64,000 nt of DNA from an uncultured Phycisphaerales bacterium (GCA_963844715.1 CAWJPJ010000006.1:1056001-1120000); one strand, 5' to 3'. Shown: positions 5,648-55,109, numbered from the stretch's first letter. Notes: a model not told the origin generated them from the letters alone. Numbers and translations are program-made.

Positions 5648-5820
5648 ACGGACCCGCCCAATATCACCTCAAATTGCACTGCAACTGCCGCTTGGCATTA
5701 ATCTTATCCGTCAAATTGAGGCGGATATTTTTGTGTTGCCCATGTAAATTGGTGTAGGATATAGGGCAAGCGTAACTCTTAAGTGGCGGCAGAAGTCCTG
5801 TGGAGACAGGGGGCTTTGCG

Positions 5821-6816
5821 ATGCAAATGGCAGTAGGGCAGGCAGTTTCAGATCGCCCGGTCATGGGCGCATTGCCGGAATTTGAATCGCGCTTCATCGT
5901 TCAATCGTCGGCGATGACCCGCGTTCAACAGGCGGCGAAGGCCGTGGCCACGCGCGCAAGCACCGTGATGCTTCTGGGGGAAACCGGCAGCGGCAAGGAG
6001 ATGCTGGCGCGGTTCGTTCACGAGAATTCCCCGCGGAAAAATCAGCCGTTTATTCCCGTCGACTGCTCGGCGTTGACCGAAACATTATTTGAAAGCCAGC
6101 TATTCGGGCACGTCAAAGGGGCATTCACCGGGGCTGTGCGCGATACCATGGGTTTCGTTCGCGCCGCCGACGGCGGGACGCTTTTTCTGGACGAAGTGGG
6201 CGAATTAACGCTGAATTTACAGGCAAAATTGCTGCGCGTGTTGCAGGAGCGCTGCGTCGTTCCGGTGGGCGGCACGCAGGCGTCTCCCGTTGACGTGCGC
6301 GTGGTCTGCGCCACGAATCGGGATTTGCAGGCGATGGTGGAACAAGAGACGTTTCGCCAGGATCTGTTTTTCCGAATCAACGTGGTGGTGCTGCGGGTTC
6401 CGCCGTTGCGCGAGCGCACGGAAGACATCGTGGCGTTGTCGGAATATTTCCTGGCGCGGCAGGCGGGGATGAGCCAGGAGCCGCGGAAATCTCTGCATCC
6501 CGACGCGGTGCAAAGCCTGATCAAATACAACTGGCCGGGGAACATCCGCGAGCTTTTCAATGTTTTGGAGCACGGGCACATCATGTCGCTGGGCCCGGTC
6601 GTTGAGTTAAGCGATTTGCCTCCCCCACTGAGCAATTCCGGGTTTGCGGGGCGCGTTCATGCGTCGGAGTTGAATCTCCAGCGGCTGGAGCGGAATGCGA
6701 TCATCGAAGCGTTGAAGCGCACGCGATTTAACCGCGCGGCGGCATGCCGTCTTTTGGGAATTGAGGCGCGTCGCTTGAATCGCCGAATTCTCGCCTTGCG
6801 CATCCCCCTGCCCTAG
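5821..6816 (+). CDS. Sigma-54 enhancer-binding protein lacking an N-terminal sensor/receiver domain
   Basis: GETGSGKE within ~60 aa of the start, GAFTGA, FLDEVG, WPGNIREL, C-terminal HTH. Confidence 0.92.
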   Translation: MQMAVGQAVSDRPVMGALPEFESRFIVQSSAMTRVQQAAKAVATRASTVMLLGETGSGKEMLARFVHENSPRKNQPFIPVDCSALTETLFESQLFGHVKGAFTGAVRDTMGFVRAADGGTLFLDEVGELTLNLQAKLLRVLQERCVVPVGGTQASPVDVRVVCATNRDLQAMVEQETFRQDLFFRINVVVLRVPPLRERTEDIVALSEYFLARQAGMSQEPRKSLHPDAVQSLIKYNWPGNIRELFNVLEHGHIMSLGPVVELSDLPPPLSNSGFAGRVHASELNLQRLERNAIIEALKRTRFNRAAACRLLGIEARRLNRRILALRIPLP

Positions 6817-6868: not shown

Positions 6869-6951
6869 CCAAAATGGTATTTTTCCGCCATATCCATTTA
6901 TAATCAAACAAGTTACGCGATCATCATACCCCCCACCACCCACCATTATGG
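6869..6951 (+). promoter_or_regulatory. Paired CCA-N3-TGG palindromes, putative enhancer (UAS) of the sigma-54 promoter at 7056
   Basis: CCAAAATGG 6869-6877 and CCATTATGG 6943-6951, 74 bp apart; same spacing recurs at 8868/8942. Confidence 0.6.
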
Positions 6952-7053: not shown

Positions 7054-7071
7054 GCGGCACGCGGTTCGTTA
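7054..7071 (+). promoter_or_regulatory. Putative sigma-54 (-24/-12) promoter of the PEP-CTERM gene
   Basis: CGGCACGCGGTTCGTT (GG-N10-GT, one mismatch at -12); positionally equivalent to the canonical site at 9054. Confidence 0.6.
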
Positions 7072-7401: not shown

Positions 7402-8745
7402 ATGAGTATCGTGGAGTCAACGAAGTCGAAGACACCCCGTATTACGCGACTTGAAGCCGTTGCCGGCGGAGCAATCATTGCTGCCGCCGTTTTCGCGGCT
7501 GCTCCGAAGTTCGCGTCCGCTCAATCCATTCAAATGCAGGTTTCGGGCGGCACCACGACCGACCCCACGGCCGCTGGCGCACTGACTTGGTTCAATACCT
7601 CGAACTGGAATAATGCCGGTGTTACCGGGACCCTTCCGGAAAGCGACACGGGCTCGCTCACCGCGCAAAACATCGCACCGGATAACGCCACGATGCCATC
7701 GGTGGGCTTGGTGTTTGATCCGGTCAACGACCCCAACGCGGCAGGACTTGGCGGTAACGCATATGTGGCGAACTTGGACGAGATTTCCGGTTCGACCTAT
7801 ATCGCTTCGGTTGCAGGAACTTATGCCGCTCCGGCAAAGCTCACGATCGAAAGCGGCACCCTCATCGCCGGCACAGCCACGGTTGGGCGCGATAGTCAGG
7901 GAATCCTGGCTCTCAACGGCGGAGCGTTCCTCACCGTCGGCTCAATCAAAATCCAAGGCACAAACAAGGCCGTTACGGCTATTGGTACTGGGACCTTCGA
8001 ATATCACGGAGGAACATTAGATGCCGAACAGGGCATCCAGCTCGGCTCGGGCGCTTGCAGTACGGGTCTAACCAAGACTTCAGCCGGTGTCGGCTACTTC
8101 ACGGTCTACAACGATGGCCCCGCCGGCGCGATTCTCAGCCAGAACGGTTTCCAGATCGCCACCAACACCAACCAGGCGGGCACGATCGGAATTGTTGAAT
8201 TCCACTATGACATCAACACGGGTGGAATCGGCGGAACCCGCCCGATCCAAACCAACGTGGACCAGGGCAACGGCGAAACCGGTCAGGGCATCCTGCACAT
8301 CCAAAATAACACCAACAATTCGGCGCGATTGAACCTTGTTCTTGACGCGGCGCCGAGCGTCATCGGCGGCCTCGTGCAGAATCTGGGCCTGTTCGATGAC
8401 ACCGTCATCTCGGGCTCCGGCACGTATCCGAAGGCCTTCTATTCAGTGGATGGCACGACGGTATTCACGCAAGGCGCCACCATCACGGCGGCATACATGG
8501 GCACGTCGTATAGCTGGACGATCAGCTATAGCGGGCAGATCAACTTCACGAATACGGCCACGTCAGGCTACGACTCGTCGGGAATCGATGCGGTTGGCGG
8601 CAACGACGTGGTACTGATCGGATTGCCGTCGGGCGGCGCTCCGCCGATCCCGGAACCGACCAGCTTGGCGCTACTCGGTGGCGCGGGCGGGATGATTATG
8701 GCCCGTCGCAGAAACAGGAAAGAAAACCAGGCCCCCAAAGCGTAA
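7402..8745 (+). CDS. PEP-CTERM surface protein
   Basis: SD GAGGAG; signal peptide ending ASAQ; G/T/N-rich body; IPEPTSLALLGGAGGMIMARRRNRK sorting signal. Confidence 0.92.
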   Translation: MSIVESTKSKTPRITRLEAVAGGAIIAAAVFAAAPKFASAQSIQMQVSGGTTTDPTAAGALTWFNTSNWNNAGVTGTLPESDTGSLTAQNIAPDNATMPSVGLVFDPVNDPNAAGLGGNAYVANLDEISGSTYIASVAGTYAAPAKLTIESGTLIAGTATVGRDSQGILALNGGAFLTVGSIKIQGTNKAVTAIGTGTFEYHGGTLDAEQGIQLGSGACSTGLTKTSAGVGYFTVYNDGPAGAILSQNGFQIATNTNQAGTIGIVEFHYDINTGGIGGTRPIQTNVDQGNGETGQGILHIQNNTNNSARLNLVLDAAPSVIGGLVQNLGLFDDTVISGSGTYPKAFYSVDGTTVFTQGATITAAYMGTSYSWTISYSGQINFTNTATSGYDSSGIDAVGGNDVVLIGLPSGGAPPIPEPTSLALLGGAGGMIMARRRNRKENQAPKA

Positions 8746-8764: not shown

Positions 8765-8826
8765 TAAAACTCTCCGCTACACCCCCGGCTCCTACCCTAC
8801 AATGCCCCGGGGGTTTTTTATGCGCC
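8765..8826 (+). repeat. Copy 1 of 62-bp direct repeat; includes an intrinsic terminator with an 18-nt C-rich loop
   Basis: taaaactctccgctacacccccggctcctaccctacaatgccccgggggttttttatgcgcc; stem acccccgg/ccgggggt plus T-run. Confidence 0.95.
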
Positions 8827-8867: not shown

Positions 8868-8950
8868 CCAAAGTAGTATGCTATTCGTCTATCCATATTG
8901 ATAACAAGGACTTAAATATCAAAATCACATATGTCCACCTACCAAAATGG
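8868..8950 (+). promoter_or_regulatory. Paired CCA-N3-TGG-like sites, putative enhancer of the promoter at 9054
   Basis: CCAAAGTAG 8868-8876 and CCAAAATGG 8942-8950, 74 bp apart, in an AT-rich tract with IHF-like motifs. Confidence 0.55.
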
Positions 8951-9051: not shown

Positions 9052-9068
9052 GCGGCACGCAGTTAGCT
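9052..9068 (+). promoter_or_regulatory. Sigma-54 (-24/-12) promoter
   Basis: CGGCACGCAGTTAGCT = GG-N10-GC. Confidence 0.75.
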
Positions 9069-9078
9069 GTTCATCGGG

Positions 9079-9219
9079 TGACCTAGTGGCTGCGGTGTTC
9101 GAAAGGACCCGCAGATTTGAAGATGAAAGCCGTCGTTGCCGAGTAAGGTGGCCACCGGCAGTTTAAAACTCTCCGCTACACCCCCGGCTCCTACCCTACA
9201 ATGCCCCGGGGGTTTTTTT
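9079..9219 (+). ncRNA. Candidate sigma-54-dependent small RNA (~140 nt); 5' end approximate
   Basis: Bounded by a sigma-54 promoter and an intrinsic terminator; no substantial ORF; GAAA-tetraloop hairpin ctgcgg-tgttc-gaaa-ggac-ccgcag. Confidence 0.65.
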
Positions 9220-9226
9220 ATGCGCC
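9164..9226 (+). repeat. Copy 2 of the 62-bp direct repeat / intrinsic terminator
   Basis: Identical to 8765-8826 apart from one extra T in the T-run. Confidence 0.95.
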
Positions 9227-13452: not shown

Positions 13453-15425
13453 CCCGGCGATTTGCAGTATTCGACCCAGATTCGGCGAAGAGCCGCTTCG
13501 AAGCCGCGGGCGAATTTTGCTCCGTCCATGAGGGCGGATTCCTGCATGCGCGGACGCAAGGATGCCCGCAGCTCCCCGAGGCGCGCGGTGTCTGCGGCAA
13601 GGTCGGCGGCAATTTTAGTAAATTCCTCGGGGGTTTGGGCCGCAAGATTCTGGAGATTCAGATTCGACAGGGCCGTGTAAGAAGCGCGTCCCATGACCGT
13701 TGGACTGACGAGAGTCACGACGGGAACCCCCATCCATAAGGAATCGAACGTGGTGGTATGCCCGCTGCACGGATAGGTGTCGAGGGCGACATCGATTCGG
13801 TTGAACACGCGCAGATATTTCGCACGGAGCAGGCGGTCCATGAATTCAACCCGCTCCATGCTGATCCCTTTTTGGACGAACCGATCGGTGACGCGCTGCC
13901 GAGCCGAGCCTGGGGGCGCGAGCATGATGAACCGGGACGAGGGAACGGCTGCAAGGACGTCGGCCCACATGTCGAGCGTTTCGTCGTTGATTTTCCCAAA
14001 CGTGTTGAGAGAGCCGAAGGTGATGAAGGCGGCGTTCTTCGCCGGGAGAGGACCGACGATCGGCTCCTTCGTCATCGGATCGTAACACCAGAAACAATCG
14101 GGAAGAGGCATGGCAAGCTCGTTTCCCGGTGCGGCCACGGTTGGCGGGCCGTCGGGCGGTTCGAGAAAGCGGTCGGTGAGCCGCCAGTCGATGGTGTCGA
14201 GGCCCGACGTTCCGGGGTATCCCAGCCAACTGACCTGCACGGGCGCGGGTTTTCGCGCGAATGCGAGAAGGCGATTCCCCAGGGTGTGAAGCTTCAAATC
14301 GACGAGAATGTCGATCCCATCTTTGCGAATCTGCTCGGCCAAGTCCTCATCGTGCCAGCCATGGGTGAAGCACCAAGTATCGGCGTAGGTTTGAAACCTT
14401 TTCGTGGAGTCATCCGGTTCGTCAACATCGGCGTAGCAAAAAATCTCATATTGGGCGTGATCGAGATGGCTTAGAAGCGGTTCCAGGAAGAACTCACTGG
14501 CGTGGGCGAAAAAATCGGAGGATGAATAGCCGATGCGCAGGCGGCGTGTGGGATCGCGATCATTCTCATGGGCGCGGAGTTGCGATTTGAGCGGCGCCGA
14601 ATGCAGCTCGTTCCAACGGCGCATTTCGTCGGCCAGGACGCGCAAATCCATTTCCCCATAGTTCACAGTGCCGATAAACGTGCTTCGGTATGCGGCGCTG
14701 TCCGGGCGCAATTCGACGGCTTTGCGATAACTGGCCAGAGCCTCGGGTATCTTTCCCAGATCCTTTTGAATGTTGCCTAGATTGTTGTGAACGTCGGCGC
14801 GGTCGGGATTGAGATAGAGGGCGCGGCGGCAGGCGGTGAGGGCCTCGTCGTATTTCCCCTGGGTCCAGAGGGAATGGCCGAGATTGTTGTAAGCGACGGC
14901 ATCATTGGGACGCGCGGCAATGACCTGGCGAAAGGCTGTTTCCGCGTCCTCCTGGCGACCCAGGGTGCCCAGGGCGCTGCCGAGGTTGTTCAGGGCGTCG
15001 ACAAAATCGGCGCGAATGGCGAGGGTCTGGCGGAACATGGCGATCGCCTCCGGCAGGCGATGCATGGTCGCCAGGGCGATGCCGATATCGTTGGACGCCT
15101 CGGCGTAGTCGGGCTTCAGCTCAAGCGCACGCATCAGGGGTGCAATCGCCTCATGGGGCTTGCCCGACGTGCGCAGGACCACGCCCATGGCGTAATGCAG
15201 ATCGGCGCGCTGATCGTTCTTGGCGACGGCAAGCTGAATATGCTCCAGGGCAGCCTGGGGTTTTCCCTGTCTATATTCGAGAACGGCAATGCGATAGAGC
15301 AAATCGGGGGAATCGGGTTCGTGTTCCAGGAGCTGCTGAAAATGAACGCGCGCCTGTTCGAGATCGCCCGCCTTCTCGTGCCGGAGCGCTTGTTCGAGAA
15401 TTTGTTCCGCCGTCATCTCCGCCAT
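13449..15425 (-). CDS. TPR + GT41 glycosyltransferase, array 1 copy 2
   Basis: TPRs; RIGYSSSDFFAHASE, KPAPVQVSWLGYPGTSG, LDTYPCSGHTT, WMGVPV. Confidence 0.92.
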   Translation of the reverse strand: MAEMTAEQILEQALRHEKAGDLEQARVHFQQLLEHEPDSPDLLYRIAVLEYRQGKPQAALEHIQLAVAKNDQRADLHYAMGVVLRTSGKPHEAIAPLMRALELKPDYAEASNDIGIALATMHRLPEAIAMFRQTLAIRADFVDALNNLGSALGTLGRQEDAETAFRQVIAARPNDAVAYNNLGHSLWTQGKYDEALTACRRALYLNPDRADVHNNLGNIQKDLGKIPEALASYRKAVELRPDSAAYRSTFIGTVNYGEMDLRVLADEMRRWNELHSAPLKSQLRAHENDRDPTRRLRIGYSSSDFFAHASEFFLEPLLSHLDHAQYEIFCYADVDEPDDSTKRFQTYADTWCFTHGWHDEDLAEQIRKDGIDILVDLKLHTLGNRLLAFARKPAPVQVSWLGYPGTSGLDTIDWRLTDRFLEPPDGPPTVAAPGNELAMPLPDCFWCYDPMTKEPIVGPLPAKNAAFITFGSLNTFGKINDETLDMWADVLAAVPSSRFIMLAPPGSARQRVTDRFVQKGISMERVEFMDRLLRAKYLRVFNRIDVALDTYPCSGHTTTFDSLWMGVPVVTLVSPTVMGRASYTALSNLNLQNLAAQTPEEFTKIAADLAADTARLGELRASLRPRMQESALMDGAKFARGFEAALRRIWVEYCKSPG

Positions 15426-15436
15426 CGCCAAACTTC

Positions 15437-17510
15437 CTACACGACAGGGCCGTTTGGGGCAACTGCCTGGCGCCACATGCGGCGGTAGGCCGCTTCAATA
15501 TTTCGCGCAAACCGCTTCGCGTCGGTCAGGGGGCACGCCTGCATCTTTTGGCGCAACTGGGCCCGAAGATCTGCCAGGCGAGTCAAATCTCGGGTCCAAT
15601 CGACGGCAATTTGAACGAATTGCGCTTCGTCGCGGGCGGCGAGTTCCGACAGATTCAGATTGGACAACTGGCTCCATCCGGCGCGGCCGACGCTCGTTTC
15701 GCCGATCAGTGTCACGACCGGCACGCCCATCCAAAAGGAATCGAGACCGGTGGTGTGGCCGTTATACGGAAGCGTATCCAGACCGAGATCGATGCGGTGA
15801 TACGTGTTCAAATAGTCATCACGCGGCTGCTGCGCGACGAATTCGATTCGGGCGGGATCGACGTTCAAAGTTTTTAGGACCCAATCGCGCGCGGAGCCTT
15901 GGGGGGCGAGAAGGACCAGCCGACTCTGCGGCACGGCCGCCAGAACCTGGGACCAAAGATTGAGCGTCTTGGCGTTGATCTTACAGAAGTTGTTGAGGCA
16001 ACCGAAGGTGACGAATCCATTAGTAATCGCCGGCAGAGGATTGACTTCGAAATTCCGGACATCCATCGCATCAGGATCGTAACACCAGAAACTGTCGGGG
16101 AGGCGAGCGAGTCGCTCGGTGTAAAGATTGTCGCCGAGTTCGGGTGGATCCAGATAGGGGTCGGTGATTCGCCAATCCATGGTTTCCAAACCTGTGCCGC
16201 CGGGATATCCGCCGAAGGTCGCCTGGATGGGGGCGGGCTTGAGCGCGAAGAGCGGGAGGCGATTGCCGGCGGTATGGCCGGATAGATCGACGAGGATATC
16301 GATTTGGTCCGCGACGATGGCGTCGGCGGCCTGGATGTCGCCGAGTAATCCGATCGGCCTCCATCCGTCTGATGCAGCGCGAAACTTTTCGGTGATCGAA
16401 TCGACGGTGCGCGAAGTGGGGTAGCAGAATATTTCGAAATTGGCGCGGTCGTGATTCAAAACGAGGGGGAGAATATTTTTCCCGACGGGATGGATGCGCA
16501 GATCGAATGAGACGTAGCCGATGCGCAGGCGGCGGTCCGGATTGCGATCGTTTTTGAGCGTGCGGCGCAGCGGGCGAAGGGGTTTGGCGTAGCGGTCGTT
16601 CCATGCGCGGCATGTGCTGGAGGAGGGTCTGGGCGGACTGCTGGGGATCGTAGAGCCCCAAGAAAACCAGATTGCTGCCGAATACCGGGTCGCCGGGGCA
16701 CAGATCGACGGCGCGGCGGTAATAAACCATGGCTTCGTCCATGCGTCCGACGGCGCGGAGAGCATTGCCGAGATTATTCAGGGCGGGAGGCGCGCTGGGA
16801 GCCAGCTCGACGGCGCGGCGGGCCTCGGCGATGGCGTCATCGAGCCGATTCGCGGACATCAAGGCGTTGGCGAGATTGTGGTGAGCCGGCGCGAAATCGG
16901 GACGAATCTGAATCGCCCGGCGGGCGGCGGTTATGGCCTCCTCGTTTCGATCCACCATCCAGAGGGCATCGCTAAGATTGCTCCATGCCTCGACATAATC
17001 CGCGCGAATCTCGACGGCGCGGCGGAAAAGATCGATCGCGTCGTCGAATCGGCCCTGCAATTTCCGGGCATTTCCGAGATTGTTATGCGCTGGCGCAAAA
17101 TCCGGGCTGGCGGCTATCGCCAAATTGACTTGGGAGATTCCGTCACCGATCCGGCCCAATTGGCAGAGGAGAACACCCAGATCGTTGTGGGCCTGGGGAA
17201 CCCCTGGCCGCAAATCGACAGAGGATTGCAGGGAGGCGATGGCTTCCTCCAATCGACCCTGTGCTTTGAGGGCGTAGGCGAGGTGCTGGTGATATTCCGC
17301 CTTGCGGAAATTCGCGGCGATCGCCTGGCGGAAATAATTTTCGGCCTCCTGCGGACGTCCGGAGCGCAAGAGCAGCTTGGCGAGATCGTGGAGGGCGTCT
17401 TCCCGCTGGGGCTGGCGCTGAAGAATTTGGCGATAGGTTGATTCGGCCTCGCCGATTCGCCCGGCCTGCTCGTGCTTCCTGGCGAGGTCGAGGGTCTGCT
17501 GGATATTCAT
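15437..17510 (-). CDS. TPR + GT41 glycosyltransferase, array 1 copy 1 (frameshift near 16610)
   Basis: TPR ORF 16071..17525 plus catalytic ORF 15437..16765 (GYVSFDLRIHPVG, LDTLPYNGHTT); ATG overlaps the dapF stop. Confidence 0.9.
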
Positions 17511-18356
17511 CGGGCGTCGGGCCATTCCCCGCTGAAGACTTCGGTTGCCGGTCCCGTCATGTAGACGTTGTCATCGGTTTGGCGCCAGTCGAGTTGCAAA
17601 TCGCCGCCGGGAAGATGTCCGAGTATTTTGCGATTCGTTCGGCCGGTTAAAGCGCCGGTGACGCAAACGGCGCAGGCGCCGGTTCCGCAGGCGAGGGTGA
17701 TGCCGCTGCCCCGCTCCCAGTGGCGCATGACGACCTCGTCGGGGTTATTCACTTGCACCCAATGTACGTTGATGCGGCGCGGAAACGCCGCGGCGTTCTC
17801 GATCTTGGGGCCCAGAGCGCTGCACGTCGACCCCGGCGGGATCGTCGGTGAAGATCACCAAGTGCGGATTTCCCATGGAGACGAACGTGGCGCGGAATTC
17901 CTCGCCGTCGATGGTGAAATCGTATTCGTGCTCCCCGACTTTTTTCATTTTTTCGGGATCGACGGGGATTTTGGGAAGGTCCAGGACCGGGCGGCCCATG
18001 TTTACGGTCACGTCGGTGACCCGCTGTTCGCGAAGATGCAAGTCGAGGGTCAGGACGCCGCGGCCGGTTTCGACGGTGAGCGGATTTTTATCGCTGAGAT
18101 TGCGCTCGTGGGCATATTTCGCCAGGCCGCGGATTCCGTTTCCGCACATTTCCGCCTCGCTGCCGTCGGCGTTGAACATGCGCATTTTCAGGTCAGCCTT
18201 CTGGGAGGGGAGAACGAGAATCAGCCCGTCGGCGCCGACGCCGAAATGGCGATCGGAGATGGTTTTCGCCAGTTGCGCGGGATCAGCGACCGTCTCGGCG
18301 AATCCGTTGACGTAAATGTAATCGTTGCCGATGCCGTGCATCTTCGTGAACTTCAT
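17507..18356 (-). CDS. dapF: Diaminopimelate epimerase (frameshifts near 17760-17820)
   Basis: MKFTKMHGIGNDY, NADGSEAEMCGNG, VSMGNPH, WERGSGITLACGTGACA. Confidence 0.95.
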
Positions 18357-25582: not shown

Positions 25583-25604
25583 TCGACACTGCTGAAGATT
25601 TTTT

Positions 25605-25744
25605 TCCCTCTCCCTGGTACTCCGGGGAGAGCACTCCCTGTCCTCTTCTGCTAGTTTCGGCACGATGGGTGAGGGGCAGTCTTTCGACGTTCGAAAAACG
25701 CCCCTCGCCCTGGCCCTCTCCCCATGATTACATGGGGAGAGGGA
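25605..25744. repeat. REP-like palindromic doublet (CCCTCTCCC...GGGAGAGGG family) with a ~35-bp internal cassette
   Basis: ccctctccctggtactccggggagag[cactccctgtcctcttctgctagtttcggcacgat]gggtgagggg ... cccctcgccctggccctctcccc...ggggagaggg. Confidence 0.8.
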
Positions 25745-32859: not shown

Positions 32860-33837
32860 TTACAATTGCGCATCGGCGCCGCGTCGGCGCGGGCGGCGCA
32901 GGCCGCACATCGTCGCCAGTCCCATGACCGCCACGCTTACCGAGGCCGGCTCGGGGACGTCCTCGAGCGTCCAGTTCAAGCTGAGCGATTCGGAGGAGCC
33001 GGATTGCCCGCAAGGCGCCAGAGTCGTGTCCCATTCGAATGCGTAGGTGACGTTGCCCTGCGTCGACGGATTGGGCTGGAAGTCGCTCAGATGCCCGAAT
33101 GACGGGCTCGTTATTTCGTTGAGAATCGTCGAATTGCTCAATTCTCCCTCGTAAGACGACGGATTCGGAGTCGAGGGTTGATTCTGAAACGTGACGCCGG
33201 TGCCGCCGTCGGTCTGTGTCGCCGTGTTGATCGGCGAGCCGGAGAAGGCAATCGTATCGTTGTTCGGCGTGTTGTTCAGATCGAAATCGCAGTATTCAAC
33301 CAGGGTCAGCGGAATCGACGTCGACGACTTGTTCGCCGCCGTGACCGTGAAGCTCATTCCGGCCCCGTTGGTCTGGCTGTTCAGGTCGTACACATTTTCG
33401 ATAGTGAACTGATTTGTGGACAAATACTCGCCCGTATAGGTGACATCCAGGGTGCTTGTCGAACTGGTGAGGCTCGTTTGCGAAAGCGTCGAGACCGACG
33501 CCGTGGCGCCCGAGGTCGCGCTCGTGCGGAAATAAACCTGCTGCTGGTTGACCTGTTGCGTGCCGTTAATGATCAGGCTGTCCAAACCCACGCTCGATCC
33601 GGTATTGATCTGCGCTGTGACGGTAGGACTCGAAGCGGACAGGTTGACGACATCCCCCTGCGCCGGGAGGGAAGTAAGAGTGAACGCCGCGGCGGCGGCC
33701 GTGGCCGATGCCACGGCGGCCGCACGCCGCAAGGCGTCTCTTCGCTCTCCTACCAACCCTAAGTAGCTCGGTAAGCAAATCAGCTTTCGCGTGGCATCCA
33801 CGAAGCCGTTATCTGACTTTTTAATGACGACGGGCAT
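32860..33837 (-). CDS. PEP-CTERM surface protein (start uncertain)
   Basis: SD GAGGAG; Ala-rich signal ending AQG; VPEPASVSVAVMGLATMCGLRRPRRR. Confidence 0.9.
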   Translation of the reverse strand: MPVVIKKSDNGFVDATRKLICLPSYLGLVGERRDALRRAAAVASATAAAAAFTLTSLPAQGDVVNLSASSPTVTAQINTGSSVGLDSLIINGTQQVNQQQVYFRTSATSGATASVSTLSQTSLTSSTSTLDVTYTGEYLSTNQFTIENVYDLNSQTNGAGMSFTVTAANKSSTSIPLTLVEYCDFDLNNTPNNDTIAFSGSPINTATQTDGGTGVTFQNQPSTPNPSSYEGELSNSTILNEITSPSFGHLSDFQPNPSTQGNVTYAFEWDTTLAPCGQSGSSESLSLNWTLEDVPEPASVSVAVMGLATMCGLRRPRRRGADAQL

Positions 33838-33839
33838 GA

Positions 33840-34235
33840 TCTCTCCTCAATACACCGACTCCAGAATCATCCTGCGCCGGCCTGATACTCAGACGAGCGC
33901 GCCTTTCCGATCGGCGCGGACATTCCCTGCGCCTTTACCGGCGCCTTTCGAAGCCACGCTTACTTCGGAATTTCTTTCCGTCGGCTGGCTCGTCGCGCCC
34001 ACACGAACGCCTACGCCCTTGCCGCACGCCCGGCCTCTTCGTTCCCGCGCCTTCTTGATCCAGGCGCGTTCGGCCGAGATTCACTTTTATGCCTCCCCGA
34101 CAGCTTTCGCCGCCGCGGAAGTCTTTATCTTCCATGTCGAATTGCGCACTCCTGCGCCATCCGTTACAAATCGCCATCCATGGCTACTCTCGTTTACACC
34201 CGCCGAAGTGCTACGCTTCGGCAATGTTGATATTC
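33840..34235 (-). ncRNA. GGA-rich structured intergenic RNA / leader (CsrB/RsmZ-like candidate)
   Basis: About 13 GGA motifs on the transcribed strand against 3 on the other, several in hairpin loops. Confidence 0.45.
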
Positions 34236-34239
34236 ATTC

Positions 34240-35201
34240 TTATGCTTCGGCGACCTGGGCCGTGCGCGGATCAGGGTCTTCGTCGCGGCGACGCGGCCGA
34301 GAGAAGAATATTCCGCCCAAGCCAAGGAGCGCCATCGCGCTGGTCGGTTCGGGAACCGACCGGACCTGCTTATCGACGGTGACCAGATAAGACTGACCCG
34401 GCACAAGTTCACGTCCCATTGGAACGCCCACTCGGCGTCGACATCGCTTAGACTGGTCGGACCGCTCAAATTCAGATTTGATGTTCCTTCGAGGGCGCTC
34501 AGCAGGCTCGTGGCGTTGCCTGCGGCATATTCGGATGCCTTCCCACTGACCACCGTCTGGCTCAATTCGCCTGGCGCGGAAACCGTCGCGGTATTGTTAC
34601 CGGTGAGACTCACTGACTCACCCAACGCTTTCCCGCCAAGGGTCAAATTCGCATAATCGAACAAGTGATAGTTCAGGCTATTTGTCGTTGACGTATTGAT
34701 CACTTTCATGGTTTCGCTGATGTCCGAAACGCCGGAGCCGGTTTGACCGCCGGTGACCATATAGGTGATGCTCAGTTGGAAGGCCTGGGCGACATCCGTA
34801 TAGGTTGCGTTCAGCCAGTTATCGCTCCCGCCGTTGGTGGACATTTCTGTCACCGAGGAGAGGGGGACGTTGTTGATTTCAGACTGCGCGCCGGTGCCGA
34901 CGCGATACCACCACGACTGTTGTTGCAACTGGTTCGTGCCATCGACGGTCCAGTTGTACATGCCGTCGGAATTGGTGGGATCGATCGAGACTGACGTGTT
35001 TCCGTTGGTGAGTGTGTACCCTGTTGGGACAGCGATGGCCGGTACGGCCGCGGCTCCAAGGAGCGAGGCAACTGCGGTAGCGGCCGCCAACATGATCTGT
35101 TTGCTCTTCGTCATGATTGCTCCCCGTCGCTCTGGAACAGTGAGCGCGCTGGACCCAAGCCCGTTGCACCCTAAATCACATTTAGAATTGAAGGTCTTCA
35201 C
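34240..35201 (-). CDS. PEP-CTERM surface protein, paralog of 32860..33837 (frameshift near 34405)
   Basis: Signal peptide; shared motifs (GTNQLQQQSWWYR vs GTQQVNQQQVYFR; WAFQWD vs YAFEWD); VPEPTSAMALLGLGGIFFSRPRRR. Confidence 0.9.
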
Positions 35202-35295
35202 AGCACTTCTCCCTAAAAGCTTCGGCTTGGGCCCAGCGGCCCCTGACTCTCGCTACAACCGATCTCAACCATTCACACAAACCAACCAATTCGGA

Positions 35296-35739
35296 TTACA
35301 TGCCTGCCGTTCGGTTACGCCCGAACTGCGGCTGCTCGGCGCCGTCGAACTTGCCATTCAGGACGTTGGCGATGGCATGTTCGCGCAAACGAGCGGTCAG
35401 ATTCAGCAATTCGCCGGTCGTGGGCGTGGTGTCGAAGAGCGTTGTCGCTCCGAACATCCGCGCCGTGACTTCCTGCTGTTCCGAAACCGGTCCGCCGACA
35501 AGCGCCCACTTCTGATGGGGCCATGCCGTCTTCAGGTGACGCAGGAAATCCCACGCCGCCATATCCGGCAGCTTCAGTCCGACCATCAGGAAGTCGAAGC
35601 TGAGCATGCGAAGCATGTCGATGGCGCGGTGCCCACTGTGCACCGACTGGAAGTTGAGCAACGCGGAACGACCCACTTTCGCGGGCGGATCCACGCAGAT
35701 GCCCAACACGGCAACTTGATCCTCTTGACTCTTGAACAT
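35296..35739 (-). CDS. Stand-alone atypical receiver (CheY-like) domain protein
   Basis: SGHRAIDMLR...FDFLMVGLKLPDM..WDFLRHLK; phospho-acceptor position is Gly; SD GAGG. Confidence 0.75.
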   Translation of the reverse strand: MFKSQEDQVAVLGICVDPPAKVGRSALLNFQSVHSGHRAIDMLRMLSFDFLMVGLKLPDMAAWDFLRHLKTAWPHQKWALVGGPVSEQQEVTARMFGATTLFDTTPTTGELLNLTARLREHAIANVLNGKFDGAEQPQFGRNRTAGM

Positions 35740-35820
35740 GACGAACCTCTTTGGTTGGCAGTGAGACGGCATCGATCGCTAACACAGCGCTCTTACCCGT
35801 CCCGTGATTCCGCCATGCCC

Positions 35821-35948: not shown

Positions 35949-36494
35949 TTAAACTGCGGCAAACGGGGCTTTTTTGCCGTAACTCGATTGCGCGCCGTGA
36001 GCAGGGCGCGATCGGGTTATTTCGAACTGGGGTGCTCGTTTTAACCGGTCGAAATTCGTGCCGGCGGCGGGCTCGGGGATATCGATTTCCGTCGAGACCG
36101 TTTCCGGCGCTGGCGTTTTTTGCGCACTGGCTTTGACGTCCGATAAAGTCTCCCAGCCGCAGACCTCCTGGATCGAGGGAGCAACATCAAAGAATGTGCA
36201 TGGGTTGAACATTCGCGCGGTGATCTCCTGATCCGTCGAAAGCGGGCTGCCGACGAGCGCCCACTTTTGCTGCGGCCAATTCGTCTTGATGTGACGGAGG
36301 AAATTCCAGATGGATATGTCAGGCAGGTTCAGGTTCACGAGCAGGAGGTCGCAGCGAACCAGGCGGAGCATGTCGATAGCCCGGCGGCCACTATCCACGG
36401 CGCGATAATCGAGGGCGCCGGATTGTCCCGTGAACGAAGCGGGCGTCACGCAAACACCTAAAACCGTGCCTCGCTCCTGTTGCTTCTTAAACAT
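35949..36494 (-). CDS. Stand-alone atypical receiver domain protein, paralog of 35296..35739
   Basis: SGRRAIDMLR...CDLLLVNLNLPDI; acceptor position is Asn; shared WPxQKWALVG and QExTARMF. Confidence 0.75.
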   Translation of the reverse strand: MFKKQQERGTVLGVCVTPASFTGQSGALDYRAVDSGRRAIDMLRLVRCDLLLVNLNLPDISIWNFLRHIKTNWPQQKWALVGSPLSTDQEITARMFNPCTFFDVAPSIQEVCGWETLSDVKASAQKTPAPETVSTEIDIPEPAAGTNFDRLKRAPQFEITRSRPAHGAQSSYGKKAPFAAV

Positions 36495-36574
36495 GTGAAC
36501 CTCGCGTCGAAATTTCCCCGAGTTAACCTCATTGCCGCGTGGCATTCGGCGTCACTCGTCGTTACGGGATACCC

Positions 36575-39220: not shown

Positions 39221-42200
39221 ATGCCTGAAACAGCGAATCCCAAACTTCGGTTGATCCCGCCTCCGGGAGTTCCGCGCATCGCGTCGTTTCCGGGCTACGC
39301 GGAACTGGCCGTCACGACGAATTTCTCATTTTTGCGCGGGGCGTCCCATGCGGATGAGCTGGTTTATCGAGCCGCGGAATTGGGATATCGGGCGATTGCC
39401 GTGACCGATCGGGATACTCTTGCCGGAGCCGTGCGGATGCATCAGGCGGCCAAGCAAACGGGATTGAAGTTGCTCATTGGGTCGCGGCTGACTTTCACGG
39501 ACGGACCGGATGTTCTTGTCTGGGTCACGGATCGCGCCGCGTACGGGCGGCTTTGCCGGCTGCTCACACTCGGGCGACGCCGCGCGGAAAAGGGGGAATG
39601 CAAACTTTCCCTCGCCGATTTGCTGGAGCATCAGGAGGGGATGTTTCTGGCTATTGTTCCGCCGGATGACATGCAGAAAATCCGCCCCTTCTCCCCCTCC
39701 CCCGGTACTCCGGGGGAGGGTTGGGGTGGGGGTCAGCAGCCAACGTTCACACAGAACCCCCTCCCGTCGTGCCGAAACTAGCGGAAGGGGACAGGGAGTG
39801 CTCCCCTGGAGTACCGGGGGAGGGGAGAAAAAGAGCGCGTCGTCGGGCAACGCATGCCGGATGAAGAGAAAGACGCGTGGACGACTTCTCTACGGCTGCT
39901 TCGTCATGTCGTCGGGAAACGCCTCTCGCTGGCAATTCATTGTCTGCACGGCCCGCGCGATCGGCGGCGGCTGGCGGAGCTGGCGGGCATCGCCGCGGAT
40001 GCGAATGTTCCGCTTTTGGCGATCAATGATGTGCATTATCACGATCCTTCCCGCCGGCGCTTCAGGATGTGCTGACGTGCATCCGCCATGGTTGCGCGAT
40101 CCACGATGCCGGTTGGCGCCTGCTCGCCAATGCCGAGCGATATCTCAAACCGCCGGAGCAGATGCATCGTCTGCTGGCGGATTATCCGCAGGCCGTCGGC
40201 CGAACGCTGCACATTGCCGAGCAATGCACGTTTTCGCTTGATGAGCTTCGCTACGAATATCCCGACGAATTGATGGAGAAAAACCAGACCCCGCTGACTA
40301 CATTGAGGGACCTGACCTGCCGCGGCGCGGAAAAGCGTTATCCGCAGGGCGTCCCCGAAGCCGTCGGGCGGCAGATCGAACACGAACTCCAGCTCATCTC
40401 CCAGCTTCGCTACGAAGCCTATTTCCTGACGGTTTATGACTTGGTGATCTTCGCCCGCTCGCGCGGGATTTTGTGCCAGGGCGCGGGTCGGCGGCGAACT
40501 CCGCCGTCTGCTATTGCCTGGGCGTCACCAGCATCGATCCCGTCCAGGGCGACCTGCTTTTCGAACGGTTTCTCAGCGCCGCGCGGAACGAGCCGCCTGA
40601 CATCGACATCGACTTTGAGCACGAGCGGCGCGAGGAGGTGATCCAGTACGTCTACGAAAAATACGGCCGCGAGCGCGCCGGAATGACGGCGACGGTCATC
40701 ACCTACCGCCCGCGCAGCGCCATCCGCGACGTCGGCAAAGCGATGGGGCTCAGCCTCGACCTGGTCGACGCGATGGCAAAAAAAATAGACTGGTGGGACC
40801 AGGGCCCCATCGCCAACGAACGCCTCCGCCAAATCGGAATCGACCCGGATGATCCGACGATCAAACTGATCATGGGATTAACAGCTCAGTTGCTCGGGTT
40901 CCCGAGGCATCTCAGTCAGCATGTGGGGGGAATCGTGATGACGCGCGGGCCGCTAAGTGAAATGGTCCCCATCGAAAATGCATCGATGGAAGATCGAACG
41001 GTCATTCAATGGGATAAAGACGATATTGATGCCTTGGGAATTCTGAAAGTCGATGTGCTCGCGCTCGGAATGCTCACCTGCATCAGCAAATGTTTTAAGC
41101 TCCTTAACCCCCTCTCCCCATGTCCTCCGCTAGTTTCCCCAGGACGGGTGAGGGGCGAGCCTTCGGCAACCGAAAAATTGCCCCTCACCATAACCCTCTC
41201 CCCGGAGTACCAGGGAGAGGGGAAAATGGAGCACCAGGGAGAGGGGAAAAAAATCGAACTTCATACGGTCCCCCCCGACGACCCCGTCGTTTACGACATG
41301 ATCTGCAACGCTGACACCATCGGCGTCTTTCAGATCGAAAGCCGGGCGCAGATGACCATGTTGCCCCGCCTCAAACCGCGGAACTTTTACGATCTGGTGA
41401 TCGAAGTGGCGATCGTGCGGCCGGGGCCGATTCAGGGGGATATGGTGCACCCCTATCTCCGGCGCCGCCGTGGGGAGGAAAAGGTGGAATATCCGAGCGA
41501 AGCGCTGCGGGGGATTTTGCAGAAGACGCTGGGAGTGCCGCTGTTTCAGGAGCAGGCGATGAAGATCGCGATGGTGGCGGCGGGATTCAGCGCGGAGGAA
41601 GCCGACCAGCTCCGCCGCGCCATGGCGGCGTGGCGATATACCGGGCATATCGAAAAATTCCACCGCAAAATCGTCGATGGAATGGTCGCCAACGGCTACA
41701 CGCCGGAATTTGCCCAGCGATGTTTCGATCAGATCAAGGGCTTCGGCGAATACGGATTTCCGGAGAGTCACGCGGCGAGCTTTGCGCTGCTGGCGTACGC
41801 CAGCGCGTGGTTGAAATGCCATTACCCGGCGGCGTTCGCCTGCGCTGCTCAACAGCCAGCCGATGGGATTTTACGCCCCCGCGCAGATCGTCCGCGACGC
41901 GCGCGAGCATGGCGTGGAGGTCCGCCACATGGATGTGAACCAAAGTTTGTGGGATTGCACGCTGGAAGACGCGGGAGATTGGCCGGCGCTGCGATTGGGA
42001 TTCCGGCAGATCAAGGGTTTGTCCCAGGCCGACGGCGAGCGCATCGCCGCGGCGCGGCAAGCCCACGGTCTTTTCCGCTCGGTCGCGGAATTTCAGCAGA
42101 TCACGCAGCTCTCCCGCCAGGCGATCCGCCGGCTGGCGCACGCGGACGCGTTTGGATCGATAAACTTGTCGCGCCGGCCGGCGCTGTGGCAATCGCTGGC

Positions 42201-48915: not shown

Positions 48916-49110
48916 ACGGACTCCTCCCACACCCGACCGATCCTGCGCGAAGCTTCAGACGCTAGCGCAGCGACCCACCCACAATGCGGCATTTAGTGTA
49001 GCAAGGCGGCGCACCGCCACAACAGATAAATTAGAGGGGTATTGACACAGTAAATCTGGGTAAAATCGGACCTTAGAGGGATTCTATATTGACGTCGGCA
49101 CACCGCCTTA

Positions 49111-49183
49111 ACCCCTCCCCCGGCATTACTGGGGAGCACTCCCCGTCCCCTTCCGCTGGTTTCGCCACGACAGGGGCAGGCGG
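49111..49183. repeat. Degenerate REP-like element with the same internal cassette
   Basis: ggggag[cactccccgtccccttccgctggtttcgccacgac]. Confidence 0.7.
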
Positions 49184-51438: not shown

Positions 51439-51502
51439 TTGCGCCTTGGCATGCTGCTCCTGAAATAACGTGCTGGAAATGTAACCGCGAGCCGGCCTCG
51501 TC

Positions 51503-53059
51503 TCAACCACTCGGCTCCGCGGAGCGAATCCACTGGGCCCACATCCGGCGATAGGCCGACTCGACGTTCCGCGCGAACCGTGGGCCGTCCATCAGGGGCG
51601 ATTTCTCGATGCGCCGCCGTAAGCCCGACCGCAGCTCGGCGAGTTTTGACAAATTCCCGGCCAGGCTCACCGCAATATCGATGAACTCCCGATCCGACCT
51701 TGCCGCCAATTCGGCCAGACCCAGATTGTTCAACTGGCTCCAACCCGCGCGTCCCACCACGGTTTCGCCCACGCGAGTCACAACCGGAACGCCCATCCAA
51801 AAGGCGTCCAGGCTGGTTGTGTGCCCGTTATAGGGAAGCGTATCAAGCCCGATGTCGATTCGATGATAAGTTTGGCGATATTGGAGAGCTTCCTGAAACG
51901 GGACAAACTCCACGCGCTCAGCGGACACGCCAAGCCGGCTTAAAATTCGCTTTCGAGTTTCGCCCGGCGGATAAAGCATGACCAGACGTGATCCGCTGAC
52001 GGCTGCAAGAACCGGCGCCCAAAGCTCCAGCGTGCGATCGGTGATTTTCCGCGATATGTTCAAACATCCGAACGTCACAAACCCGCTCTTCAGCGCCGGC
52101 AGCTCATTCACCGGCGGCTCAAATCGAAGGGGATGGTAGCACCAGAAGGTTTCGGGAAGGCGAACCGATCTTTCAGAGTAATAGTCGTCCCCTTCCCCGG
52201 GCGGATCAAGAAAAGGATCGGTGAGCCGGTAGTCGATCGCGCTCTAAGCCGGTGGTTCCCGGGTAAGCCAACCAGGAGACTTGCACCGGGGCCGGACGGT
52301 GCGCAAACAGAAAGGGCCGCGCTGCGGCCATGTGCATTGTCAAATCCACCAGGATGTCGATTCCGTCATCGCGAATTATCCTTGCGACTTCCGCGTCGCT
52401 TTTACCGAGGCAATCGCGCCAAACATCGGCGAGCCGGCGAAATTGCAGCGTGTTGTGGTCCGGATTCAACACGCTCGCATAACAATGAATCTCAAATGAC
52501 TCGCGAGAGTGATTCGATAGGAGCGGAGAGGTGAAATAGGCCTGGCAGTGCCGCCGAAAATCGGGCGAAACGTAACCCACGCGCAAACGGCGATCCTCCG
52601 AGCGATCGTTGGAATAAGGCGGCGATGATTGCGTCAGCGGCGCGGCGAAGCGCTCGTTCCAGCGAGCGTGCTCGCGCGGATCGAGGCCATGTCCTGTTTC
52701 GGATCGAAATAGAGATGGAAAAGCCGGTTCGATTGAACGATTTGATTGTTCGGGGCCGATTCCAACAGCGGGCGCTCGAAGCGCTCCGCCTCGTCGAATC
52801 GTGCCAAGTCCCGCAGGCAAACGGTCAGACCGATGGGCGCCTCGACGGAATTCGAATCGAATTTAAGCGCCTGTTGAAAGCAGGCAATGGCTTCCTCGGG
52901 CCGGCCTTTGCCGCGCATCGCCAGGCCCAGGCCGACATTCGCCGAAGGCAAATCGGGGCGCAACTTCAACGCCTGCCGCAAATGGGGAATCGCCTCATCC
53001 CATTTTTGCGACTTGAGCAAGGCCTCGGCGGATGCCAATTCGTCGTTGACCATATTCAT
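51503..53059 (-). CDS. Short-TPR + GT41 glycosyltransferase, array 2 copy 3 (several indels)
   Basis: ORFs 52634..53089, 52206..52820, 51503..52111; SPDFRRHCQA, LDTLPYNGHTT; ATGA coupling. Confidence 0.88.
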
Positions 53060-55107
53060 GGCTTGCCGGTCCGGCACCAGTCCACCCACATCCGCCGATA
53101 GGCGGCTTCCATGTTCCGCGCGAACCGTGGGCCGTCCATCAGGGGCGACTTTTCCATCCGCCCGCGCATAGTCGCCCGTAGATGCGCCGGTCGCGGGATA
53201 TCACCGGCCAAATTTGCCGCAATATGGACGAACTCTTCATCCGTCCTGCCCGCCAATTCGGTCAGGCCCAAATTGTTTAGTTGACTCCACCCCGCGCGCC
53301 CCACCACGGTGTCGCCCACGCGCGTCACCACGGGTACGCCCATCCAGAACGAATCGAGACTCGTGGTGTGTCCGTTATAGGGAAGGGTATCCAATCCCAC
53401 GTCGATTCGGTGATACATATCCCGGTAATCCTGCCGCGTCTGGAACGGGACGAAGTCGACGCGATCGGCGGGCACGCCGAGCTTTTCCAAAACCCGTCCC
53501 CTGCCTTCGCCCGGCGCATACATCATGATTAGCCGAGAATTGCCGACCGCTGCCAGAACCTTCGACCATAATTTCAACGTCCGATCGTTGATCTTGCGCG
53601 TCGCGTTCAAGCACCCGAATGTTACAAACCCATTTTGCGACGCTGGCGACGCCTTCACCGCGGGGTTTCGCTCCAACGGGTCATAGCACCAGAACGTATC
53701 CGGGAGCCGAATAGACTTCTCGCTATAGAATTCATCCCCCACCCCCGGCGGATCCAGATAAGGATCGGTGATTCGATAATCGATCGCCGTCAGCCCCGTC
53801 GTCCCGGGATACGCCAGCCAGGTGACCTGAACCGGCGCCGGCTTGCGCACAAAAAGCAGCGGACGCCCGAACGCCATGTGCATCGTTAAATCAACCAGCA
53901 CGTCGATGCCATCGGCTCGCACCATCTCCGCGATTTCCTCATCCGATTTGGTGACGCAATCGCGCCAAACATCGGCATAGGTCCTAAAATTCGCGGTATT
54001 CTGATCCGGATCCAGCACGCTCGCGTAGCAAAAAATCTCAAACGCCTTGTGGTCGTGGTTCGATAGGAGCGGAACCGTGAAATAAGTCTGACAATGCCGC
54101 CGAAAATCGGGTGAAACATATCCGATCCTCAGGCGGCGGGTGGGCGTTGGATCGTTGGCGTGAGGTTTGGCCGCTCGTGTTAGCTCCGCCGCGAATCGCT
54201 CGTTCCAACGCGCGTGCTCTTGGTAAATGGATCGCGCAGTCCTGACCAGGATCGAAATAAAGATGAAACAGACGATTCCCGTAAAGCGTCTGATTTTCGG
54301 GCTCGACGTTTAGGACGAATTGCTCGATCTCCGCCGCCTCTTCGGGTCTGCCGACATCCCGAAGGCAAACAACCAGACTGATGGCCGCGCTGGCCAATTG
54401 CGGATTGATTCGCATCGCTTCTTTATACGAAGCGATCGCCTCGTCCGGCCGCCCTCCCCGCGGAAGGCGCCGCCTAAATTCATATGCGCATTGGCCAGAT
54501 CAGGCTTCAACTCGATGGCTCGCCGGGCGTGGGGAATCGCCTTGTCCCAGCGCCTCAGTTCGATGAGCGCGTTGGCAAGATTGTTTTGGCAATCGGCGCG
54601 ATCCGGGGCGATCTCGACAGCTCGGGTCAGATAACGGATCGCCTCTTGCACCCGCTTCTGTAACGCCAGCGTGACCCCCAGTTCGTTATATGCGTCGCAA
54701 TAATCCGCCTGGAGGTCGATCGCTTTTTTGAGCGAGTCGGTGGCGCCGATGGGGTCGCCGCTGATCCTCAGGGTCAGCCCAAGCAAATACCACGACGGCG
54801 CGAAATCCGGTCGAACCGCCAGGGACTCCCGCAGCGCCCTGGCGGCATCGCCCCACCGGCCCAGCCCATTGAACGCGACACCCAGATTGTAAAGCGCATC
54901 GTGCGCGTTGGGATCGGCCTTGGCCGCTCGCTCCAACCACCCAACCGCCTCTTGCGGTCGCCCGGCCTGAAAAGCCGCGACCCCCGCGAAAAGGAGCCGG
55001 CGCAATCTCGCCGTGCTCTGCCACGACGCGCCGCGCAACCGCCTCCCCCTCGCCCAGCGCCCGGCGGTCAGATGCGTCCTGGCCAGTTCCAAATCATCTT
55101 GAATCAT
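53056..55107 (-). CDS. TPR + GT41 glycosyltransferase, array 2 copy 2 (several indels)
   Basis: ORFs 54310..55143, 54038..54415, 53056..54018; KPAPVQVTWLAYPGTTG, LDTLPYNGHTT. Confidence 0.88.
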
Positions 55108-55109
55108 GT

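Follow-up and report, generated by a model that had tools for sequence, protein, structure and literature searches.

PEP-CTERM proteins are a large class of surface proteins tied to exopolysaccharide and floc formation, and the control of their genes set out in the accessible text of the papers describing them is transcriptional and proteobacterial (PMC1569441, PMC9850573). A 64,000-nucleotide stretch of DNA from an uncultured Phycisphaerales bacterium of the family Tepidisphaeraceae (GCA_963844715.1 CAWJPJ010000006.1:1056001-1120000, the whole of it referred to below as the window) raises the question of whether genes of this class may be governed by RNA. A 61-nt repeat follows one PEP-CTERM gene in the window, and an earlier note had suggested that an RNA bearing this repeat is antisense to the leaders or ribosome-binding sites (RBSs) of two distant PEP-CTERM genes on the minus strand. 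We compared the genome under study (G000) with two others of the same genus, G001 and G002; G000 and G001 form the closer pair, G002 being more distant from both (activator identity 86% versus 70%). Based on these sequence comparisons, we consider it reasonably probable that the repeat is the working end of a trans-acting small RNA (sRNA) that would pair with the leaders of about one third of the PEP-CTERM mRNAs in the genome, the two flagged genes included, and lower their translation.

A repeat with the features of a small RNA

The repeat occurs twice in G000, one copy directly after the stop codon of the PEP-CTERM gene at 7402..8745 (hereafter the host gene) and the other 399 nt further on. 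In it, a C-rich tract is followed by a stem of 7 bp closing a C-rich loop of 18 nt, and a U tract comes last. Copy 1 (8766..8826, plus strand), comprising the seed and the terminator with its 18-nt loop, lies in the 3' untranslated region (UTR) of the host gene, is found at the same place in G001, and is a candidate 3'-UTR-derived sRNA. Copy 2 belongs to a predicted stand-alone sRNA of ~140 nt (9079..9222, plus strand), whose start we placed according to its putative promoter and which comprises two 5' hairpins, an A-rich linker, the seed and the terminator. The 5' seed is ACTCTCCGCTACACCC (9168..9183, plus strand); its last three C residues form the base of the stem (9181-9187 paired with 9206-9212), and the U tract is at 9213-9219. 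The terminator loop (9188..9205, plus strand) is a putative second pairing region. Identity to G001 over the predicted sRNA is 78%, and the consensus fold, derived from these 2 sequences, contains no two-sided compensatory changes. Covariation counts on one alignment were set aside as evidence because that alignment had been fitted to the structure, and a scan of the element for sigma70 promoters and terminators was uninformative, the 18-nt loop being too long for the rule used by the scan.

Five copies of the element were found, 2 in G000 and 3 in G001, each with a CUCUCC tract and a CUCCUACCC loop, and ACTCTCCGCTAC is unchanged in 5/5 of them. G001 carries the same tandem pair plus a third copy behind another PEP-CTERM gene, and the element has been kept together with its promoter in that genome although the flanks diverge. 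A DNA search of 61 genomes returned strong element matches in G001 only, and a covariance model of the 5 copies gave strong matches in G000 and G001 only among 141 family genomes (these tallies, like those given below for the exact string, for Hfq and for a broadened model, count the unpublished genome G004, on which no claim rests). The model found no match in G002, where the syntenic locus is fully assembled and consists of the activator, an MSIV-type PEP-CTERM gene, a short spacer with a plain terminator only, and a convergent downstream gene; thus, the absence of the element from G002 is not a gap. Across the 61 genomes, the exact string TAGGGTAGGAG was present in the G001 element itself only, with no copy at a target. 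In Rfam, the one gathering match in the window was a tRNA, weak matches by E-value were to unrelated families, and 9 related loci gave none. Hfq (PF17209) was detected in 0/61 family genomes, with a control profile positive in 5/14. RpoN and exosortase (PF09721) are present in G000, G001 and G002, and G000 holds 44 PF07589 matches at E<=1. Taken together, we regard the repeat as a likely sRNA.

Seed complements across the PEP-CTERM class

PEP-CTERM starts in G000 were chosen by hand, 45 from 72 motif matches that include false positives, and those in the other genomes by a rule blind to the RNA, which gave 30 starts in G001 (29 with a full leader; 7 motifs without a start) and 50 in G002 (2 without). 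Genes were called with a purpose-written caller, duplex energies were calculated with RNA.duplexfold, and the opening of targets was treated as a constraint-based energy. We defined a strong seed site as one of <=-18 kcal/mol within -200..+30 of the start. Such sites were present in 16/45 leaders of G000 and 10/29 of G001, compared to 5/50 in G002 and 41/620 in the background; two alternative backgrounds gave 44/758 (intergenic-led genes) and 8/158 (signal-peptide genes). On the opposite strand, the corresponding counts were 0/45, 0/29, 1/50 and 26/620. Cut-offs from -17 to -20 and rank tests agreed with the result at -18.

Shuffled seeds were of two kinds, full and core-kept, the latter preserving CTCTCC. 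For the contrast of G000 plus G001 with G002, the real seed was better than 60/60 full and 60/60 core-kept shuffles, and against 43 leaders of G138 it was better than 45/45 of each. Measured against the background, core-kept shuffles equaled the real seed in 4/60 cases for G000, 9/60 for G001 and 51/60 for G002. The cognate leaders (26/74) likewise exceeded the PEP-CTERM leaders of six element-free genomes (13/119; p=6e-5); G034 yielded just 6 usable leaders. Ranked among 2,033,882 intergenic 17-mers in a reverse scan, the seed came 5th for complementarity to the G000 leaders and near 160,000-200,000 for those of G002. Six of the top 14 7-mers of the G000 and G001 leaders complement the element, and none of the top 14 in G002 does so. 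The double site in the MSIVESG leader persists at the orthologous position in G001 and has been lost from G002. The suggestion of the earlier note that the repeat RNA is complementary to PEP-CTERM leaders thus holds at the level of the class, which carries seed complements beyond generic pairing to Shine-Dalgarno (SD) sequences, mainly in the genomes that bear the element; single sites are near chance.

Seed and loop have different best targets. Perfect 11-nt complements of the loop number two only in G000, both at PEP-CTERM RBSs (C6:419043 and C8:275513), the second of which has a seed complement beside the loop complement; a 10-nt seed complement occurs at C4:239740. As a class-wide seed, the loop displayed no excess over shuffles in PEP-CTERM leaders, and it points to individual strong targets only.

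Palindromes resembling repetitive extragenic palindromic (REP) sequences (CCCTCTCCC...GGGAGAGGG) are abundant in G000 and lie in the window at 25600-25680, 39690-39830, 41120-41250 and 49110-49175. Their arms likewise complement PEP-CTERM leaders, but are themselves paired within stems.

The two flagged genes and their four sites

Both flagged genes encode PEP-CTERM proteins, as judged by domain matches, and every string quoted in the earlier note is present where it was said to be. Gene 1, a candidate target (32860..33837, minus strand; MPVVIK...; PF07589), has the same start in its G001 and G002 orthologues. An alternative start at TTG 33733, which would put the loop octamer on the SD, was ruled out, the longer N-terminus being conserved in both orthologues. 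Gene 2, likewise a candidate target (34240..35201, minus strand), begins at GTG 35201 or ATG 35116, and the GTG, its probable start, keeps SD and frame in the G001 and G002 orthologues. It contains a 1-nt frameshift near 34400 that is probably an assembly error, because both orthologues are intact. Single-base frameshifts also split several other G000 PEP-CTERM genes and apparently one exosortase, and are probably assembly indels.

The four sites had been proposed to lie in leaders or RBSs; only 1/4 is at an RBS, and the best RBS targets are outside the window. The RBS site (33841..33856, minus strand) covers the GAGGAG SD of ATG 33837 and would pair with the seed as 6+6 bp around an internal loop over GAGGAGAG (-18.6 kcal/mol), its ungapped match amounting to only 11/16 in register 33840. 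The match at 34186..34201 (minus strand) is present and falls outside any RBS, at an intercistronic position just past the stop of gene 2 (~40-55 nt past stop 34240 and ~350 nt before ATG 33837). The octamer at 33747..33754 (minus strand), the weakest of the four, is present inside the coding region of gene 1 (+84 to +91) rather than in a leader. The fourth site (35246..35262, minus strand) is in the 5' leader of gene 2 as had been proposed, with 35246-35257 lying ~45-56 nt upstream of GTG 35201.

With a 17-nt seed, the four sites gave -18.6 to -19.8 kcal/mol, and after target opening they stood among 150 background leaders at percentiles 1.3 (34186), 3.3 (35246), 6.0 (33841) and 15.3 (33747). 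Sites 34186, 35246 and 33747 are kept in G001 and lost in G002. The G001 counterpart of 34186 is stronger (-24.4 kcal/mol) and achieves this via a different sequence, a value reached by 0/450 shuffled seeds; the segment is missing in G002 (-7.0). The counterpart of 35246 in G001 (-20.8 kcal/mol) also pairs via a different sequence, with 1/450 shuffles reaching its value and G002 at -6.0. Among shuffles with a comparable G000 site, the G001 value was reached by 0/30 for 34186 and 0/7 for 35246. The octamer at 33747 is intact in G001 and altered in G002. Conservation of the SD site at 33841 in G001 extends to G002 (-17.6), and because this site is conserved in all three genomes it does not discriminate. 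Overall, the flagged sites are better than a first inspection suggests.

Two other features adjoin the sites. A GC-rich GAAA-tetraloop hairpin between the two PEP-CTERM genes (~34090-34120, minus strand) is conserved in G000, G001 and G002 and may serve in processing or stability. Two paralogous degenerate receiver-domain genes (35296..35772 and 35949..36545, minus strand) lie upstream of the target pair, and the first of them is conserved in G002.

Competing explanations

Several findings weigh against a trans-acting sRNA directed at this class. The earlier note had named the frequency of matches as a point to be checked, and by ungapped identity no single flagged site exceeds chance: the 4.55 Mb of G000 searched for seed identity hold 34 matches at >=13/16, 2 of which are the repeat copies (32 non-self, 0.48 per 64 kb), compared to the 44.5 that 60 shuffled seeds gave at the median, together with 39 loop octamers (0.55 per 64 kb) and 10 one-bulge 12-mers of the seed (0.14 per 64 kb). 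With a 16-nt seed and a -30..+6 window, the two flagged genes reached the 28th-30th percentile only. As for the class, the 45 G000 starts were hand-picked after some matches were known, and the -18 cut-off was chosen on the same data. The seed ranked 35 in the reverse scan when both genomes were required, mostly behind REP-like palindromes. With paralogs collapsed, the contrast with G002 was 13/43 versus 4/31 (p=0.07); 6/9 shared families go the expected way. When accessibility was included, the G002 leaders also beat the background (p=3.5e-4), the difference between cognate leaders and those of G002 having p=0.03. Since G000 and G001 are sisters, they supply one phylogenetic contrast. Fifteen G-rich G118 leaders match the seed as well as the cognate leaders do. 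Finally, at the RBS alone, 8/40 core-kept shuffles were as good as the real seed, and GGAGAG is as common in the PEP-CTERM RBSs of G002 (13/50) as in those of G000 (14/45), with 12/30 in G001 and 26/620 in the background; because the CTCTCC core explains the RBS signal, the RBS-only signal is common to G002.

A first rival account is that the complementarity is generic. In that event the element would be a terminator that has been duplicated, or else an sRNA directed at different targets, and its matches would reflect open, purine-rich PEP-CTERM leaders in which GGAGAG is kept for another reason, such as an older element with a TCTCTCCCC tract, termed type C below, which is present in both G000 and G002 and matches the PEP-CTERM leaders of G000, G001 and G002 about equally. 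The GGAGAG motifs of G002, which is without the element studied here, the explanation of the RBS signal by core-kept shuffles and the family-level p value all fit this account. However, the lineage-specific excess was not reproduced by core-kept shuffles (0/60 against G002 and 0/45 against G138), and the element-specific 7-mers CGGAGAG, AGCGGAG, TGTAGCG and GCATTGT top the list only in G000 and G001. Moreover, a conserved promoter, 5' hairpins and an invariant 18-nt loop are needless for a plain terminator, which is what G002 has at this place. Weighing both sides, we find generic complementarity unlikely.

It is also conceivable, and in our estimation improbable, that pairing of the RNA leads to activation or stabilization of some of these mRNAs rather than to their repression, for example by shielding the intercistronic region or by opening an inhibitory leader structure. 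Strong sites upstream of the ribosome footprint (7/16 in G000 and 5/10 in G001) would suit such an action, as would the position of 34186 just past a stop codon and near the conserved GAAA hairpin, but the rest of the strong sites, like the best ones for the loop, lie over the SD or the start codon, the repressive geometry shown for the sRNAs LhrC and AbcR1. We are more doubtful still that the C-rich loop and tract act by binding a protein or titrating a G-rich RNA, with the mRNA matches incidental. Single-stranded motifs repeated in a multicopy RNA and the lack of Hfq among the 61 family genomes agree with this idea, and the accessible text on LhrC has its authors raising the same possibility for that RNA (PMC4132741), but it leaves the strand- and lineage-specific complements in one gene class unexplained. 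A motif acting at the DNA level (for a regulator or for recombination), or a vestige of an origin of the element as an inverted piece of a PEP-CTERM leader, is the least credible account, for although the G000 and G001 versions of sites 34186 and 35246 each diverge from a nearly perfect seed complement, the matches are in antisense orientation only (0/45 and 0/29 on the other strand in G000 and G001), the sites tolerate bulges, and the element forms part of a terminator that its own promoter precedes.

Proposed shared control of the host gene and the RNA

If the repeat acts as a trans-acting sRNA, its expression may be coupled to that of the host gene. The gene at 5800..6816 (plus strand) encodes a sigma54 enhancer-binding protein with AAA+ and helix-turn-helix domains (Pfam PF00158, PF25601, PF02954) and without a receiver or GAF domain. 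It scored 306 bits with the PrsR model TIGR02915, below the cut-off of 502.6, in a scoring of this activator alone. It is followed by CCAAAATGG (6869..6877, plus strand; kept in G001, CCAAAATAG in G002), a candidate upstream activator site of the host promoter, by that predicted promoter, a sigma54-like -24/-12 element of the variant form GGCAC-N4-TTCGT (7056..7069, plus strand), and by the host gene itself, a PEP-CTERM gene of the MSIV family (7402..8745, plus strand; TIGR02595, PF07589). The host promoter aligns as GGCAY-N4-TTCGTTATA in G000, G001 and G002. A second CCAAAATGG (8942..8950, plus strand) is the candidate upstream activator site of the predicted -24/-12 sigma54 promoter of the stand-alone sRNA, GGCAC-N5-TAGC (9054..9067, plus strand), which we take to fit the sigma54 consensus; both are kept in G001. 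The activator orthologue of G002 directly precedes the same kind of PEP-CTERM gene, and behind that of G001 the same promoter recurs at the end of a contig. CCAAAAT[GA]G occurs 43 times in the genome and is followed by a sigma54-like motif at 2/43 only, those at 6869 and 8942; the random rate is 57/5000, the motif having been defined from this very locus. Upstream of PEP-CTERM genes, the sigma54 motif was found at 0/45 by a strict definition and at 1/45, the host gene, by a relaxed one. The product of 5800..6816 is the likely activator of both the host gene and the sRNA.

Paralogs of the host gene differ from it in their sites. C7:598877, 80% identical to the host, has a double upstream seed site and pairs with the loop at codons 2-4 (-17.6), and the 3' part of the terminator loop pairs with codons 2-4 of MSIV paralogs. 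The host gene is without the upstream seed sites of the paralog, and its synonymous codons 2-4 are without loop pairing (-8.1); weak pairing of its SD with the seed persists, and a further site of -20.1 lies at -244. A host without these sites and a paralog with them fit a pattern of one on, others down, and along with the promoter type and upstream motif common to host gene and RNA they lend circumstantial support to the switch suggested in the earlier note; mutual exclusion of surface proteins is our guess. It counts against this that the G001 gene assembled before the element carries both kinds of site. Since the 5' flank of that gene is syntenic with the C7 paralog of G000 and a contig break cuts off the activator-led leader of G001, two paralogs may have been joined in a chimeric G001 contig; because of this possibility, the gene is ambiguous as a test of host immunity.

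In the mechanism that we propose, the neighboring sigma54 activator would switch on the host gene and the RNA together via their common CCAAAATGG site, and the RNA would act without Hfq through two regions, the ACUCUCCGCUAC seed and the CUCCUACCCUACAAUGC loop, occluding GGAGAG-type RBSs or start codons. At the upstream and intercistronic sites 35246 and 34186, it may instead prevent ribosome standby or direct how the mRNA is processed. Overall, the host protein would be favored over other surface proteins. Only tentatively do we extend this to an RNA-based coat switch in planctomycetes, in which one sigma54 activator would induce one PEP-CTERM gene and two copies of an Hfq-independent RNA silencing its competitors, the chosen gene would escape via synonymous changes in codons 2-4 and loss of leader sites, and related anti-SD modules across the Tepidisphaeraceae would constitute a lineage's own code of surface proteins worn together.

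Activator paralogs (L332 and L048 at G001 C8:23635-25930, L333 on G002 C13, and L334 at G000 C7:703665) are followed by a GGCAY-N4-TTC variant motif. In G001, a PEP-CTERM gene and the element's third copy come next, making a repeated cassette of activator, promoter and surface gene. Clusters of tetratricopeptide repeat (TPR) and glycosyltransferase-41 genes lie in the window at 9249-17525, adjoining the element, and at 51500-56600; their products could glycosylate surface proteins.

Related modules in the family

A broadened model matched 85/141 family genomes at E<=0.001, many of the matches probably being plain terminators, and the 30 loci inspected include three recurring anti-SD modules, types A, B and C. 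Type A (L092, L094, L099, L168, L169, L172, L174, L176, L177, L178) spans several genera and combines a sigma54-type motif, a variable body and a near-invariant anti-SD 3' module, with TGGCAY-N5-TTGC usually 136-199 nt upstream of the module end; it is a candidate for an undescribed sRNA family. In a reciprocal test on the 43 G138 leaders, the type A seed gave a weak signal (4/45 full and 2/45 core-kept shuffles as good). Type B (L163, L164, L165, L167, L108, L088) has a CCTCCTCCGCCAC tract and a CCTCCGCA loop, and its seed did not match the PEP-CTERM leaders of its own genomes (17 in G062 and 16 in G006), indicating that the modules are not all aimed at the PEP-CTERM class. Type C, a TCTCTCCCC tract and a hairpin with a TTCCCC loop, is syntenic between G000 (C6:144495-144549) and G002 (L357:1127-1184, C39:1127), with related elements in at least 8 other family genomes. 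Against PEP-CTERM leaders in G002 it was better than 50/50 shuffles, and it may account for the genus-wide GGAGAG variant.

A second element (G000 C8:569300-569360; L125 in G002; L137 in G001) has ~50 nt identical in the three genomes and consists of a TTTCTTCCCTCCTTA anti-SD tract and a terminator after a conserved gene near rplM; L125 is without an Rfam match. The motif upstream of it is presumably a promoter of the extracytoplasmic function (ECF) type. In G138, GAGGGCA/GAGGGCT is strongly enriched in PEP-CTERM leaders (L311-L328 and other loci), GAGGGCA being present in 11/43 of them compared to 6/758 G000 background leaders, a different lineage-specific motif.

Comparison with described systems

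In its several copies, its CU-rich loop and tract, its surface-protein targets (here predicted by complementarity) and its proposed independence of Hfq, the element resembles LhrC1-5 of Listeria monocytogenes. The accessible text on LhrC describes a multicopy sRNA with CU-rich motifs in loops and in a single-stranded stretch, which blocks translation of the mRNA of the cell-wall-associated protein LapB in an interaction that does not need Hfq (PMC4132741). That text places LhrC under the LisRK two-component system (PMC4132741), and the element here has a predicted sigma54 promoter and activator instead. It further differs in belonging to another phylum, in matching nothing in Rfam, in having one copy in the 3' UTR of a surface-protein gene, and in predicted targets that make up a whole sorting-signal class.

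The sRNAs AbcR1 and AbcR2 are Hfq-dependent, a point of difference from the present family, with Hfq in 0/61 genomes. For AbcR1/AbcR2 and NfeR1 of Sinorhizobium meliloti, the available text describes two different anti-SD motifs (a loop motif and another situated between stems) that have separate sets of targets, and repression by AbcR1/AbcR2 of a large class of exported-protein mRNAs (PMC8844928). Two candidate anti-SD motifs and class-wide predicted targets are features that would be shared by the element, which, unlike AbcR1 and the alpha-r15 family, has no Rfam match and a host in the Tepidisphaeraceae rather than the alphaproteobacteria. The AbcR targets given in that text are transport and metabolism mRNAs, with expression driven by LsrB/RpoH1 (PMC8844928), unlike those of the element. 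The element would work like LhrC and AbcR1/2 but belongs to neither family.

Nearer to PEP-CTERM biology is the PrsK/PrsR PEP-CTERM-box regulon, which the accessible text describes in Proteobacteria only and as purely transcriptional (PMC1569441); pepA is RpoN-dependent according to the portion available of a later paper (PMC9850573). The locus studied here resembles that regulon in its predicted sigma54 promoter and upstream activator site before a PEP-CTERM gene. It is unlike it in that the activator has no receiver domain and falls short of the PrsR cut-off, in that the sigma54-like motif is confined to 1/45 PEP-CTERM genes, and in its additional RNA layer.

The literature covered, which lay largely outside subscription journals, held no sRNA acting on PEP-CTERM genes and no characterized sRNA of this group. 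If the reading that we favor is correct, it would put a name to the RNA, point to its promoter and activator, and rank the targets of sRNA control in a family for which no Hfq was detected; it would also offer a testable account of how one cell selects from its dozens of PEP-CTERM genes.

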